The notes under the pieces: generated by a model
The model's database searches: none
Told to the model about the DNA's origin: nothing
What the model saw: only the letters and a program-made list of their open reading frames with translations
In this document: positions 13,730 through 17,836 of the stretch, piece after piece
Layout of the letters: each line of letters opens with the position of its first letter
Position numbering within the stretch: position 1 is the stretch's first letter
Assembly (NCBI GenBank): GCA_963741205.1
Contig: CAVUHW010000024.1
Coordinates: 1 to 25,854 of the forward strand
DNA: 25,854 nt
Direction: 5' to 3'
Source: Nitrospirota bacterium
Lineage (GTDB): Bacteria; Nitrospirota; UBA9217
Program-made: the position numbers and the translations under genes

Positions 13730-16700
13730 TCAGATAAGTCGATGCAGGGCCTCGATCCGGTCGGAAAACTGGTCCTCGGAAAAGCAGAACTTGAGGTTTT
13801 GGTAGTCCCTGCGCAGGGCGGTCACCTCATCCCGCACGTTCTTCTTGTCCAGAACGACATCTCGGATCAGGCCCGCGAGTTTCCTGAATTCATTGTTCCC
13901 GAATCCGAACCGCGTCATTTCGGAAACGCCGAGCCGGAGCCCTCCTGACGCGGTGAATCCCTCCTCATCGGGCGTGGCCTGGAAATTGACGATGATATTG
14001 TTTTCCTCGAGCCTTTGCGCCGTCTCGATCCCCTTTGCATAGCCCACCTGCACGATGACCTGGTGGGTTTCGGTGTAGGAGATGGCGGGGTCGCCCGCCA
14101 CGCGCAGGCCGGCGTCGGCGAGAGATTTCGCGAAGCTCTTCGCGTTTCCGACCACGCTCTTCTGGTATTCGTCCTTGAAGTGGTTCATCTCATAGGCGGC
14201 CATCAGGAGTCCCAGCAGGGTCCCGAGATGGTGGTTGCTCACGCTGCCGGGGAAAGTCCTGTTTTCGATCGCCTCCCAGAGGGGGTATTGCCGGTCATCT
14301 TCGGCAAAGTTGTTCGCGATGATCCCGCGCTGCGTGCCGAAGAATGTTTTATGGGTGGACCCGGTCACGATGTCCGCGCCCTCGACAAAGGGCTGCTGGA
14401 AATGGGGCCCTGCCAGGCCGAGGACATGGGCCATGTCGTACATCAGGATCGCGCGCAGGCCGAGCTCGTCCAGGCATGCTCTGATCTCGGCAACCGGTTC
14501 CTTGTGAAGCACCATGCTCTTTCCGAGGATGATCAACTCGGGCCGGTGTTCATCGAGCAGCCTTCTCGTCTCTACGATATCGATCTTGTACGGGTTCTCC
14601 GGAAGCACCGGGAAGTTGACGATTGCCGGCCGCTCCGTTGCCGGGTCCCTCGCGATGAAATCGTGCAGCGCGCCCATTGGCTGGGCGCTCAAATGGCCGC
14701 CTTTGATGATGTGGTTGTTCATCACCGGCCGAAGCCGCCGCGGCTCCCGTTTCGGGTCCCCCCGGTTGACAAAATCCATCAGCGCGCTGAACACCGCGGC
14801 GTTCGCCATCTGACCGCTGATGACGCGGCTTTCGATATTTCGGCAGCCGAGGTACGTTCGCATCTCCTCGGCGATCAGCCGCTCCACTTCATTGATGAAC
14901 CCCGTGCCCTGATAGTAAAACACATCGGCATCAAGAAGCGCCTTGACCTTCTTGTGCTCCGCGTACCGGAACGAGGGGTCCATGATCGACAGGAGCCGTA
15001 CCATGGGGGAAGCCGTCATCTCCGAGGGGATTAGGTTTATACACTGTTCCTGCCTCCAGCGGGTGTTCTCGATCGCCTTGTCAAGAAGCGCGTTGACTCG
15101 CATCCGGACCTCCTCTGTGACGAATTGTTCCTGCCTCTCCTTTACGCCCGCGCCGCTCCCGTCCTCTTCGCGGATGATTGCCCGGGCCCGGGGAGGCGCT
15201 TCGGACCGCAGATGGTGCGCTACGACGACCGCCTTGATCCTCTTGCCGCGCACGTCAATGTCAAGCTCCTGGCCGATGAGAAGAGTGGAATCGATCAGTC
15301 CAAGACAGACCGGCCGCTTCCCGGTCTCGTCAACCATGCGGCTCTCAAGCCCCTCGCCCGTTGTTTTCCAGTAGGGGGCAACGGTGCCGCTGGTTATCCA
15401 TCCAACCTGTTTGTCGTTGATGAAGATCTTGTCCCCGTGCCGCGCGATCCCTTTTCCAACGAGGGCGATGGGCTGGATGATTTGTTTCAGCCTGCCCATC
15501 CCCTCAAAATCGCGTTCCAGGACCTTCTGAAGATCGTTAAACTGTTCCTGAAGGGCCGCCCGGCCGATGAATTCCCCCTTGTCAGGATGGAAGCTGACGG
15601 CAAAACGGGCAAGGGAAAGGGCAAAAACAGGGATCTCCATTCCCCCCGGGTCAAGCCCGAGCTCATTTCCATACAGCGGCAGCCCCGCTTCGAGCCGCAG
15701 ACTGTCACGGGCCCCCAGGCCCGCGGGTTGGGCCCCGAGTTCGGTCAGCCTGCTCCACAGGGATTCCACCTGCGCGCTGTCTACAAACAGCTCGAAACCG
15801 AGAGGCTCGCCGGTATACCCGGTCCGTGCGATGAAGAGGGGCTTGTTGTCCAGGGTCGCGACCGAGAGGTTGTTCCTTCCCGGTTCCGGCAGGCCGCCCC
15901 CGGGGAGAAGCTGCTCCATGATCCGCCGGCTCTCAGGCCCCTGAAGAGAGAGCATGGCCAGCTCTTTCGTCTTGTCGATCATTTCCGTTTCAGGGAAGCC
16001 GGCCCTGAGGCGCTCCAGGTGTTCCCAATCCTTTTTGCGGTTCGCGGCGTTCACGACGAGCAGGTATTCATCGTCGTGTAAACGGTAGAGATAACAGTCG
16101 TCGATCGCCCCGCCGGTCTCATTCGCGATCATGCTGTACTGGGCCCTCATGGGCGTCAATGCCGCCGCGTTCCCGGTAAGCGCGTGCTGGAGGAACGCAA
16201 GACTATGAGACCCGCGGATAGTGAACCGTCCCATGTGCGACACATCGAACAGCCCTGCGCCCTTCCGTGTGGCCAGGTGCTCCTGGAGAATGCCCGTAGG
16301 ATACTGGAGCGGCATTTCCCACCCGCCGAACTCGACCATTTTCGCGCCCAGGCTTTTGTGCTTTTCATTCAGCATTGTTTCCAAGGGCTTTACCTTGAAG
16401 CGCAGGACCGGCTGCTTTGCCGCGAGGACCTCGTCGATCCTCCTGACCGGGGTCTTCGTGGGGGCCTCTTTGAGAAGCTCAGGCTGTTTTTCCGCCTCCT
16501 CGCGGATGCGCCCCATGACATCGAGGAAAGCGTCCAGAGTCTCCCTGGACTCCGTTTCGGTCGGCTCTATCATAAGCGCTTCCGGCACGTTCAGCGGAAA
16601 ATAGATCGTGGGCGGATGGATGCCGTAGTCAAGGAGCCGCTTCGCGATATCCAGGGCAGTTACCCCGAAGCGCTCCTTCAGCTCGCTTGCGGAAAGCACG

Positions 16701-17836
16701 AACTCATGCTTGCACACCTGGTCAAAGGGCAGACGATAAATCCCCTTCAGCTTTTCTTTCAGATAATTGGCGTTCAGCACCGCGTACTCCGAGGCCTTCT
16801 TCAGCCCATCGGCGCCCATGGCGAGAATATACGCATAGGCCCGTATGACAATGCCGACGTTCCCGAAAAATCCTGCTACGCGTCCGATGCTGTCGGGACG
16901 GGCATGGTCCAATGCATAGGCCTCGCCGCTCTTTACGATATCGGGGATTGGCAGGAACGGGACAAGCCGTTCCGACACGAGAACGGGCCCGCTGCCCGGA
17001 CCGCCGCCCCCGTGCGGAGTGGAGAAGGTTTTGTGGAGGTTCAGGTGCACCACGTCGAACCCCATATCGCCGGGGCGCACTTTGCCCATGATGGCGTTGG
17101 AGTTCGCGCCGTCGTAATACAGGAGTCCTCCGGCCTTGTGGACCTTTTTTGCGATGGACCTGATGTCCTTCTCGAAGAGGCCCAGGGTATTCGGATTGGT
17201 GAGCATGATGCCCGCCAGGTTTTCACTCAGATGTTTGTCCAACTCCTCAAGGGACACCATGCCTTCCCGGTTCGACGGCAGCTCGACCACTTCGAAGCCG
17301 GAGAGATGAGCTGAAGCGGGATTGGTCCCGTGGGAAGAATCAGGCACGAGAATGCGCGTTCTCCCGTTCTCCCCACGCTTGTTGAAATAGGCCCGGAACA
17401 GTTTCATGCCCGTGAACTCGCCGTGGGCGCCGGCAAGGGGCTGGAGGGTCCCCCACTTCATGCCGGTGATCTCGCACAGCAGGCTGGTCGTTTCATGGAG
17501 CAGGCGCAGCATGCCCTGGACCGTGCGAACTGGCTGGAGCGGGTGCAGGCGCAGGAACCCCGGGAGGGAGGCGAGGTCCTCGTTGATCTTGGGATTGTAC
17601 TTCATGGTGCAGGACCCCAGGGGGTAGAAGCCCAGGTCCACGCCGTAGTTCATCCTTGAGAGATTGATGTAATGCCGGATGACCCCAACCTCCGAGAGTT
17701 CCGGGAGATCAGGATCGGTTATTCGCAGGTACTGGGGACCGAGGGAGTCAGTCGCCGCTTTTTGGGGAACATCGAGTTCGGGGTATGCATAGCCCCTTCT
17801 TCCCGGCCGTGATTCCTCGAATATCAGCTTGCTCAT
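13730..17836 (-). CDS. gcvPB-gcvT-glyA: Triple fusion: glycine dehydrogenase subunit 2 (GcvPB, ~aa 1-480) + aminomethyltransferase (GcvT, ~483-890) + serine hydroxymethyltransferase (GlyA-like, ~910-1368)
   Basis: Gcv[38 protein letters not shown]. Gcv[90 protein letters not shown]. No stop codon in 4107 bp. Confidence 0.93.

Follow-up and report, generated by a model that had tools for sequence, protein, structure and literature searches.

We analyzed a 25,854-nt stretch of a Nitrospirota genome (assembly GCA_963741205.1, contig CAVUHW010000024.1, positions 1 to 25,854; hereafter the window), whose minus strand carries a glycine-cleavage operon. In this operon gcvPA, encoding the alpha subunit of the P-protein, precedes one long gene in which the beta subunit (GcvPB, or PB), the aminomethyltransferase (GcvT, or T) and an archaeal-type domain resembling serine hydroxymethyltransferase (SHMT) are joined (Table 1). 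The open reading frame (ORF) listing and the translation of this gene contained no internal stop. A Pfam scan of its product placed GDC-P/GcvP2_C at residues 70-450, GCV_T at 489-727 together with GCV_T_C, and SHMT at 918-1324. The PB part passed the equivalog threshold for GcvPB (NCBIfam NF003346, 753 bits vs a cut-off of 441, residues 2-479), and the T part passed both of its cut-offs over residues 486-875 (TIGR00528, 265.8 vs 235.85; NF001567 of NCBIfam, 321.4 vs 300) and had the T-proteins 1yx2 and 1wos as its top Foldseek matches (TMt 0.88-0.89). The SHMT-like domain passed Pfam PF00464 with 122.8 bits against a gathering score of 27. Two pyridoxal phosphate (PLP) lysine motifs were located, NLHK in the PB domain (residues 266-269, positions 17030-17041), whose K269 corresponds to the PLP-binding lysine of the family, and STHK in the SHMT-like domain (residues 1160-1163, positions 14348-14359). 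The linker added at the PB-T junction (16411..16370) was essentially nil. We conclude that this gene is a genuine fusion in a single reading frame, in the order GcvPB-GcvT-archaeal-type SHMT. A preliminary description, made from the letters of the window, had proposed the same ORF with exactly these coordinates, both lysine motifs, a PB-T junction with almost no linker and a charged T-SHMT linker at about 15170-15110, and our analysis bears out all of these.

Table 1. Features of the gcvPA and gcvPB::gcvT::SHMT-like operon in the window.
Feature	Position	Strand	Remarks
Upstream leader and promoter region	19179..19319	minus	travels with the operon; homology to G007 ends at 19319 (blastn)
gcvPA (P-protein alpha subunit)	17833..19178	minus	broken into frames 17946..19178 and 17833..18324
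Fused gene gcvPB::gcvT::SHMT-like	13730..17836	minus	1368 aa, 152.2 kDa; stop codon 13730-13732
GcvPB domain	16397..17836	minus	residues 1-480; K269 in NLHK
PB-T junction, KVKPLETML	16370..16396	minus	residues 481-489
GcvT (aminomethyltransferase) domain	15182..16381	minus	residues 486-885
Charged T-SHMT linker	15086..15181	minus	residues 886-917
Archaeal-type SHMT-like domain	13733..15085	minus	residues 918-1368; PLP lysine K1163 in STHK

The assembly from which the window comes (G000) has 50 contigs and is 84% complete. Since it seems generally indel-prone, so that frameshifts and fusions seen in this assembly alone need outside confirmation, we searched for independent copies of the PB-T junction. 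The junction was open in six sequences of the same clade, namely the window, two other genomes (G007 and G021) and three entries of a protein collection (P0005, P0276 and P0277). G007, another species of the same genus, had an 896-aa ORF (L002 1501..4191) with a junction identical to that of the window. G021 belongs to another genus of the same family; its frame (L095 783..3752) was open from residue 380 to 1368, ran off the end of the contig and read ...PILRFKVRPLETML... at the junction. P0005 was a full-length 1368-aa protein, 88% identical to the window protein and 98.3% identical to the G021 piece, so these two are distinct sequences. Both P0276 (895 aa) and P0277 (906 aa) crossed the junction as well. 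Comparison of the junction codons of G000 and G021 revealed 6 synonymous and 4 non-synonymous differences with the frame kept, and the out-of-frame TAA near 16392 in the window was missing from the G021 DNA (GGTGAG vs GGTAAA). Homologues in other assemblies, which the preliminary description had asked for, were thus found both in full length (P0005) and as junction-spanning pieces (G007, G021, P0276 and P0277).

Public sequencing data agreed with these copies. Part of the stretch was present in 20 runs from 15 studies, and four of the 20 (X1, X3, X4 and X6) were compared with the window as Logan contigs. An indel near 16392 that would bring the TAA into the PB frame had been named beforehand as the finding that would undo the fusion; in all four runs the stretch from 15931 to 18354 was free of listed indels. 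Gap-free contigs crossed 16392 in X3 (record 11, 15711-16636) and X6 (record 28, 16072-17617), from two other studies, and the listed contigs of X1 and X4 did not bridge this position under the 31-letter rule.

The T-SHMT half of the protein has many relatives that lack PB. Of 8000 candidates scored in a search with residues 480-1368, 5327 matched at E<=1e-3. The top 120 were almost all 880-885 aa long, carried both GCV_T and SHMT and were 60-64% identical to the query, and many proteins of ~883 aa showed 61-64% identity across 99-100% of residues 485-1368. Where a source name was given, it was only 'aminomethyltransferase' or 'GcvT'. By record title these T::SHMT proteins came from metagenome-assembled genomes (MAGs) of Acidobacteriota, Syntrophobacter, Desulfobacterales, Thermoleophilia, Oscillospiraceae, Clostridiales, Gemmatimonadota, Pseudomonadota and Planctomycetes, and also from a Nitrospiraceae MAG. 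An uninterrupted T::SHMT ORF was found in 13 of 80 genome-contig loci, and 26 such ORFs occurred in 80 metagenome loci. From these comparisons, the T-SHMT half of the window protein belongs to a large, unnamed T::SHMT fusion family that is not rare. The existence of GcvT-SHMT fusions had been noted correctly in the preliminary description, and they are far commoner than it assumed. Several members lie in glycine-cleavage clusters, with the gene orders lpd-PA-PB-lipoate ligase-T::SHMT (L016), PB-PA-gcvH beside T::SHMT (L018), T::SHMT-gcvH...PB (L021) and PA-PB-T::SHMT (L024). At 4331-6715 of a Pseudomonadota MAG locus (L027), lpd-T::SHMT was followed by an ACT+HAD gene (SerB-like) and a D-2-hydroxyacid dehydrogenase gene (SerA-like), an arrangement that ties the module to serine metabolism. 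Two loci with ORFs of ~880-900 aa (L022 and L023) had been candidates for PB-T fusions and were rejected after the domain scan identified them as T::SHMT. P0171, considered as a stand-alone SHMT-like fission product, was dropped because its C-terminus was out-of-frame garbage.

How PB came to be joined can be read from unfused relatives. The order PA-PB-T::SHMT occurs as separate, collinear genes at three loci (L024; L026, with the end of PB overlapping the beginning of T; and L123). The nearest unfused relative is a genome of the same family (G071), whose PB is 83% identical and ends in VVRYKKDG followed by a stop. At least 137 nt run from that stop to the contig end without a T start, and T::SHMT lies on another contig. 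Within this non-coding spacer (L099 1-137, G071:C293, minus strand) we observed a perfect 12-nt inverted repeat, GTCACCTTTCTT ... AAGAAAGGTGAC, with a T-run ahead of it, which may serve as terminator or as a regulatory hairpin separating PB from the next gene. The stop and spacer after PB in G071 indicate that the fused lineage has lost both, and just two or three residues now separate its PB tail from the beginning of T. A T-domain tree was built from 53 rows by a quick IQ-TREE run, with 24 T::SHMT proteins hand-picked for spread from ~120 matches and without the frameshifted L026 and L042 or the contig-end-cut L017 and L025. In this tree the PB-fused proteins and P0006 (T::SHMT only) formed a clade with a support of 100, nested within the T::SHMT proteins. 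T::SHMT thus appears to be an old integrated unit and PB a recent addition, mainly fixing stoichiometry and proximity; PB joined later, in one small clade that probably lies within Nitrospirota. Inside the PB-fused clade the triple forms (G000; P0005/G021) were interleaved with PB-T proteins lacking SHMT (G007/P0276; P0277). Because of this interleaving, SHMT must have been lost or split off at least twice in sister lineages.

Other combinations of these domains put the three-way form in perspective. PB-T fusions without SHMT were present in the same clade (P0276, P0277 and P0278), with a deletion or a stop in the linker, and also outside it. Three of the latter were 841-858 aa long and 43-45% identical to the window protein (P0126, P0279 and P0280), and a fourth had a Pro/Ala-rich linker (P0281). 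Since these lay far apart on long, distant branches of the T tree and had different linkers, their sequences indicate at least two further, independent origins of PB-T fusion in other lineages. On the other hand, all three domains in this order were found in none of the 150 top-scoring ones among 1.84 billion cluster representatives, and PB was fused to T in none of 80 genome-contig and none of 80 metagenome loci. The triple form is rare and confined to one small clade, and PB-T and T::SHMT fusions occur elsewhere, so that the fusion is less singular than it had been rated. T-PA-PB fusions exist too (P0155, 1342 aa; P0128; P0130). Very long predicted proteins with T, PA and PB, of 1816-3020 aa, were also encountered (P0128, P0130, P0135, P0136, P0145, P0146 and P0159), and P0130 additionally had a Glu/Leu/Phe/Val dehydrogenase domain. 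The reality of some of these very long predictions is uncertain, and they may be gene-calling artefacts.

We modeled the two halves of the protein with AlphaFold2 (AF2). The PB-T model (residues 1-890; an alignment of 36 rows that included 9 PB-T fusions) had a mean predicted local distance difference test score (pLDDT) of 86.2 and a predicted TM-score (pTM) of 0.53, and its pLDDT fell below 50 at residues 474-481. The T-SHMT model (residues 485-1368; 62 rows, all T::SHMT) reached a pLDDT of 90.5 and a pTM of 0.88, with pLDDT values under 50 confined to model residues 408-418 (892-902 of the whole protein). Because of the higher pTM of T-SHMT (0.88 vs 0.53) and the low pLDDT at the PB-T junction, we read the models as predicting that T and SHMT form a co-evolved module of fixed arrangement, to which PB is flexibly tethered, although the pTM contrast is not a clean one, as fused rows made up 9 of 36 in one alignment and 62 of 62 in the other. 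No solved chain spanning both T and SHMT domains was found in the Foldseek search (TMq <=0.43).

The upstream gene gcvPA is split in the window, a point missed by the preliminary description. Pfam GDC-P profile positions 3-271 were matched in the first of its two ORFs (17946..19178) and positions 280-427 in the second (17833..18324). The break lies at about 18354-18357, where the window has one base missing and two substituted. In all four compared runs one additional G stood behind 18354, with C for T at 18356 and C for A at 18357, and minus-strand reading of their bases restored GGPGVGY, as in G007. The gene was intact in G007 (448 aa, GGPGVGY) and at the same spot in G071. Since all four runs and G007 carry the intact version, the break reflects either a local error of the assembly or a mutation private to its source. 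The stop codon of gcvPA overlaps the start codon of the fusion (ATGA at 17833-17836); GcvPA is encoded by the overlapping upstream gene, as the preliminary description had stated. A Shine-Dalgarno-like AAGGAG precedes the gcvPA ATG. No Rfam family, and hence no glycine riboswitch upstream of gcvPA, reached its gathering score anywhere in the window, and at E<=1 the sole match in 19100-19480 was a chance, sub-threshold snoRNA; regulation therefore gave no clue to the direction of flux.

Other genes of the assembly were broken as well. The canonical glyA was split in two (G000:C8:224900-226031), fhs lay in three frames (G000:C22:121021-122759) and served here only as evidence on assembly quality, and Lpd-like oxidoreductase genes were frame-broken at G000:C14:2493-3950 and G000:C31:41522-42878. 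At window positions 1-1420 a pyridine nucleotide-disulphide oxidoreductase started in the frame of 3..710 (N-terminal FAD motif at 477-587) and continued in that of 320..1420 (match at 1127-1372), which looks like another frame break. Elsewhere in the window, G+C content was lower at 5400-9600 and 23000-24000 (0.45-0.49 vs ~0.57), and the ORFs 6011..6526, 7197..7874 and 7954..8463 had no Pfam match.

The glycine cleavage system's remaining components were located in the same genome, where genes for GcvH (GCV_H, G000:C14:5702-6058, 153.7 bits) and lipoamide dehydrogenase (Lpd; TIGR01350, G000:C14:4082-5455, 521 bits vs 408.8) adjoin on contig C14. Serine dehydratase alpha (PF03313) had no match in G000, and at 84% completeness its absence is not shown. 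PB makes up the P-protein only together with PA, T acts on aminomethyl-lipoyl-GcvH, and SHMT is obligately dimeric. We favor, with a probability of roughly 0.7, the reading that the fusion arose by loss of a stop and spacer, that PB now runs into a prefused T-SHMT and that the product pairs with GcvPA as a glycine-serine enzyme. In an ancestral operon gcvPA-gcvPB-(gcvT::SHMT), the stop codon of gcvPB and the spacer ahead of gcvT would have disappeared, and the beta subunit of a two-subunit glycine decarboxylase would then continue straight into an already fused aminomethyltransferase-SHMT. The fusion would pair with GcvPA through its PB part, and dimerization through the P-protein and SHMT interfaces would yield roughly (PA)2(PB-T-SHMT)2 of ~400 kDa. 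With lipoyl-GcvH and Lpd this complex would catalyze 2 glycine + NAD+ <-> serine + CO2 + NH3 + NADH, and the adjacent SHMT site would consume the methylene-tetrahydrofolate (methylene-THF) made at the T site, with local recycling of THF. A bolder version remains doubtful to us: a self-contained glycine-serine machine in which one GcvH lipoyl arm shuttles between P and T on one chain, methylene-THF passes internally to SHMT and a tightly bound folate is catalytic, so that T::SHMT would be an unrecognized natural folate-channelling enzyme, acting in many anaerobes as T-protein of the glycine cleavage or reductive glycine route. Related Nitrospirota classes from aquifers, to which the window lineage may belong, are described in PMC11033732 as low-oxygen organisms with Wood-Ljungdahl genes.

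Several observations weigh against the favored reading, in addition to the unequal depth of the two model alignments. Among the closest relatives, G007 is without SHMT, as window positions 13896-15152 (1257 nt) are deleted there, and the chains of P0276 and P0277 end within the linker or ahead of it; the three-way form is therefore not stably maintained. The operon was patchy, with close homologues in 5 of the family's 64 genomes (G000, G007, G021, G036 and G071), and the flanks of the operon were unrelated between G000, G007 and G021. Between G000 and G007 the ratio of non-synonymous to synonymous substitution rates (dN/dS) of the T domain was 0.55, on 40 differences only. The SHMT-like domain is divergent and failed the NCBIfam SHMT model NF000586 (261.7 vs a cut-off of 335), and the nearest solved relative of this domain is an enzyme that uses tetrahydromethanopterin, not folate, as PMC3697235 indicates. 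If the gcvPA frameshift were real, the strain would be without a working P-protein. For the compared runs 171 substitutions are unlisted, and a stop made by substitution in the bridging contigs is possible. None of the 20 runs with part of the stretch is recorded as RNA.

Some of these points feed an alternative that accepts the fusion as real in the DNA and sees it as a short-lived, near-neutral accident in a decaying mobile accessory cassette, with no selected advantage and with parts that would function, or not, just as before the fusion. The G007 deletion left a 97-nt remnant of the SHMT end behind the TGA stop, out of frame through one extra base (G007:C12, L002 4190-4300, set against window 13799-15152), and together with the truncated P0276 and P0277 it fits such decay. 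The triple and PB-T-only forms were interleaved within a T-tree clade with a support of 99, and AF2 gave no fixed PB:T arrangement, which are likewise in keeping with this alternative. In the census of the family, 7 of 64 genomes matched at E<=1e-60, two of them with other PB types. The contig of G007 (C12) shared with the window only the operon, 19319..15153, and the remnant, at 97% nucleotide identity by blastn, and that of G021 (C41) shared only 16699..13701, at 90% nucleotide identity. Synonymous divergence was low (dS of 0.05 for G007 and 0.22-0.29 for G021), hence the form would be young. Because of the low dS and the unrelated flanks, recent transfer or rearrangement of a cassette is suggested, and the operon may behave like an accessory cassette moving between genomes of the family; the repeats flanking it (~12800-19900) were short, chance-like matches only, with no sign of a mobile-element boundary. 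Against an accident without advantage stands the dN/dS between G000 and G021, which was 0.24 for PB (101 codons), 0.32 for T and 0.14 for SHMT, with 1.06 for the linker. The PB value between G000 and G007 was 0.28, on few differences. These ratios (0.14-0.32) show purifying selection on all three domains and continued constraint on the fused form, and the T-SHMT linker is unconstrained in sequence. The independent PB-T fusions elsewhere (P0126/P0279/P0280; P0281) suggest in addition that the arrangement is tolerated or favored, and the gcvPA break was missing from all four compared runs. We consider a near-neutral accident unlikely.

A second alternative concerns the C-terminal domain, which might be an aldolase, a transaldolase or an enzyme of another pterin instead of a folate-dependent SHMT; there would then be no glycine-serine-C1 unit. 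It draws on the score below the NF000586 cut-off and weaker matches to fluorothreonine transaldolase, on the presence of a threonine aldolase/transaldolase (7k34) among both the sequence and the fold matches, and on the pterin used by the Methanococcus jannaschii enzyme (tetrahydromethanopterin, according to PMC3697235). That enzyme (4uqv and 4bhd) was the closest solved relative at 174.5 bits, other SHMTs reaching <=100.7, and it matched the domain in Foldseek with TMt 0.87-0.88. The top sequence and fold matches are nevertheless SHMTs, and motifs common to 4uqv are retained in the alignment, including G.RLG..E.TR.G. An unfused T::SHMT protein (P0009) also scored below the NF000586 cut-off (252.7), and among the 62 T::SHMT sequences S676 and H678 were invariant and T677 and K679 nearly so. 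Moreover, its fusion partner in glycine-cleavage clusters is a folate-dependent T-protein, against which it is predicted to pack, and serB-like and serA-like genes follow T::SHMT in L027. A function other than SHMT seems to us quite unlikely.

It is also conceivable that one ORF gives two products, with an internal start at L485 (TTG, pointed out in the preliminary description) or M488 (ATG) yielding mainly a separate T::SHMT next to PB or PB-T-SHMT, and the in-frame ATG of M488 does sit where unfused T::SHMT proteins begin. However, P0276 has Pro where the window has this internal Met, and internal initiation at that ATG is therefore not conserved; a clear Shine-Dalgarno sequence ahead of it was not seen, and PB has no stop, hence the full-length product must be made in any case. 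We regard this possibility as very improbable. Finally, a single-base assembly error falsely joining gcvPB to gcvT::SHMT, for which the many frame breaks of G000 (gcvPA, canonical glyA, fhs, the Lpd-like genes and the oxidoreductase at the window start) might speak, is effectively refuted by the same open junction in G007, G021, P0005, P0276 and P0277, each with sequence differences, by the two gap-free bridging contigs from two other studies and the lack of a listed indel at 15931-18354 in four runs, by the in-frame pattern of synonymous and non-synonymous changes in the junction codons, and by identities of 88-97% among assemblies, which exclude one shared erroneous template.

Whether methylene-THF is handed over directly from T-protein to SHMT is an old and long-debated question, also for plant mitochondria, and the natural fusions offer a direct test object for it. 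SHMT and the glycine cleavage system jointly make up the heart of the reductive glycine pathway, a route now being engineered for formate and CO2 assimilation, and they likewise drive the conversion of glycine to serine in photorespiration. The T::SHMT module is abundant yet hidden under the name 'GcvT', its interface is predicted to be fixed, and nature has added a catalytic P subunit to it at least once. The quick forming and breaking of these fusions limits the advantage they can give, and the widespread T::SHMT module may be a more valuable lead than the three-way form. For annotation, proteins of ~883 aa and 1368 aa of these types should not be called plain GcvT or GcvPB. No description of a GcvT-SHMT or GcvPB-GcvT fusion was found in full-text searches, subscription journals and supplements lying outside their scope, and the accessible part of 10.1101/2025.08.26.672485 mentions no fusion.

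The closest known counterparts are the T::SHMT proteins of ~883 aa (for example P0052, P0071 and P0049), which share with the window protein the T domain with its HLRSEAPP-type end, a variable linker and the archaeal-type SHMT, and whose genes are found in glycine-cleavage clusters, in some cases immediately behind gcvPB. Unlike the window protein they begin at the T domain, have PB as a separate gene and are widespread. In comparison with two-subunit GcvPA/GcvPB systems, the PB of the window is likewise at equivalog level and has gcvPA upstream and overlapping, but its C-terminus differs by continuing into GcvT; the P-protein of Thermus thermophilus reportedly has an alpha2beta2 quaternary form. 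The PB-T fusions (P0276, P0277, P0278, P0126, P0279, P0280 and P0281) have the same order of PB then T on one chain, and those of other clades are 43-48% identical to the window protein, with a canonical T-protein end and longer linkers. T-PA-PB fusions (P0155, P0128 and P0130) also unite several glycine-cleavage components in a single chain, but in another domain order, with PA included and SHMT missing. Plant mitochondria use glycine decarboxylase and SHMT in photorespiration to convert 2 glycine to serine + CO2 + NH3 + NADH; this is the same net reaction, again by way of methylene-THF as common intermediate, but the proteins are separate. The M. jannaschii SHMT (4bhd, 4uqv), to which the C-terminal domain of the window protein is closest among solved structures, is by contrast a stand-alone archaeal enzyme, and it uses tetrahydromethanopterin (PMC3697235). 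Two-way T::SHMT fusions occur commonly in databases and are, as far as we have seen, uncharacterized, and the three-way fusion is a rare, young and lineage-restricted extension of them that is real, constrained and evidently reversible.

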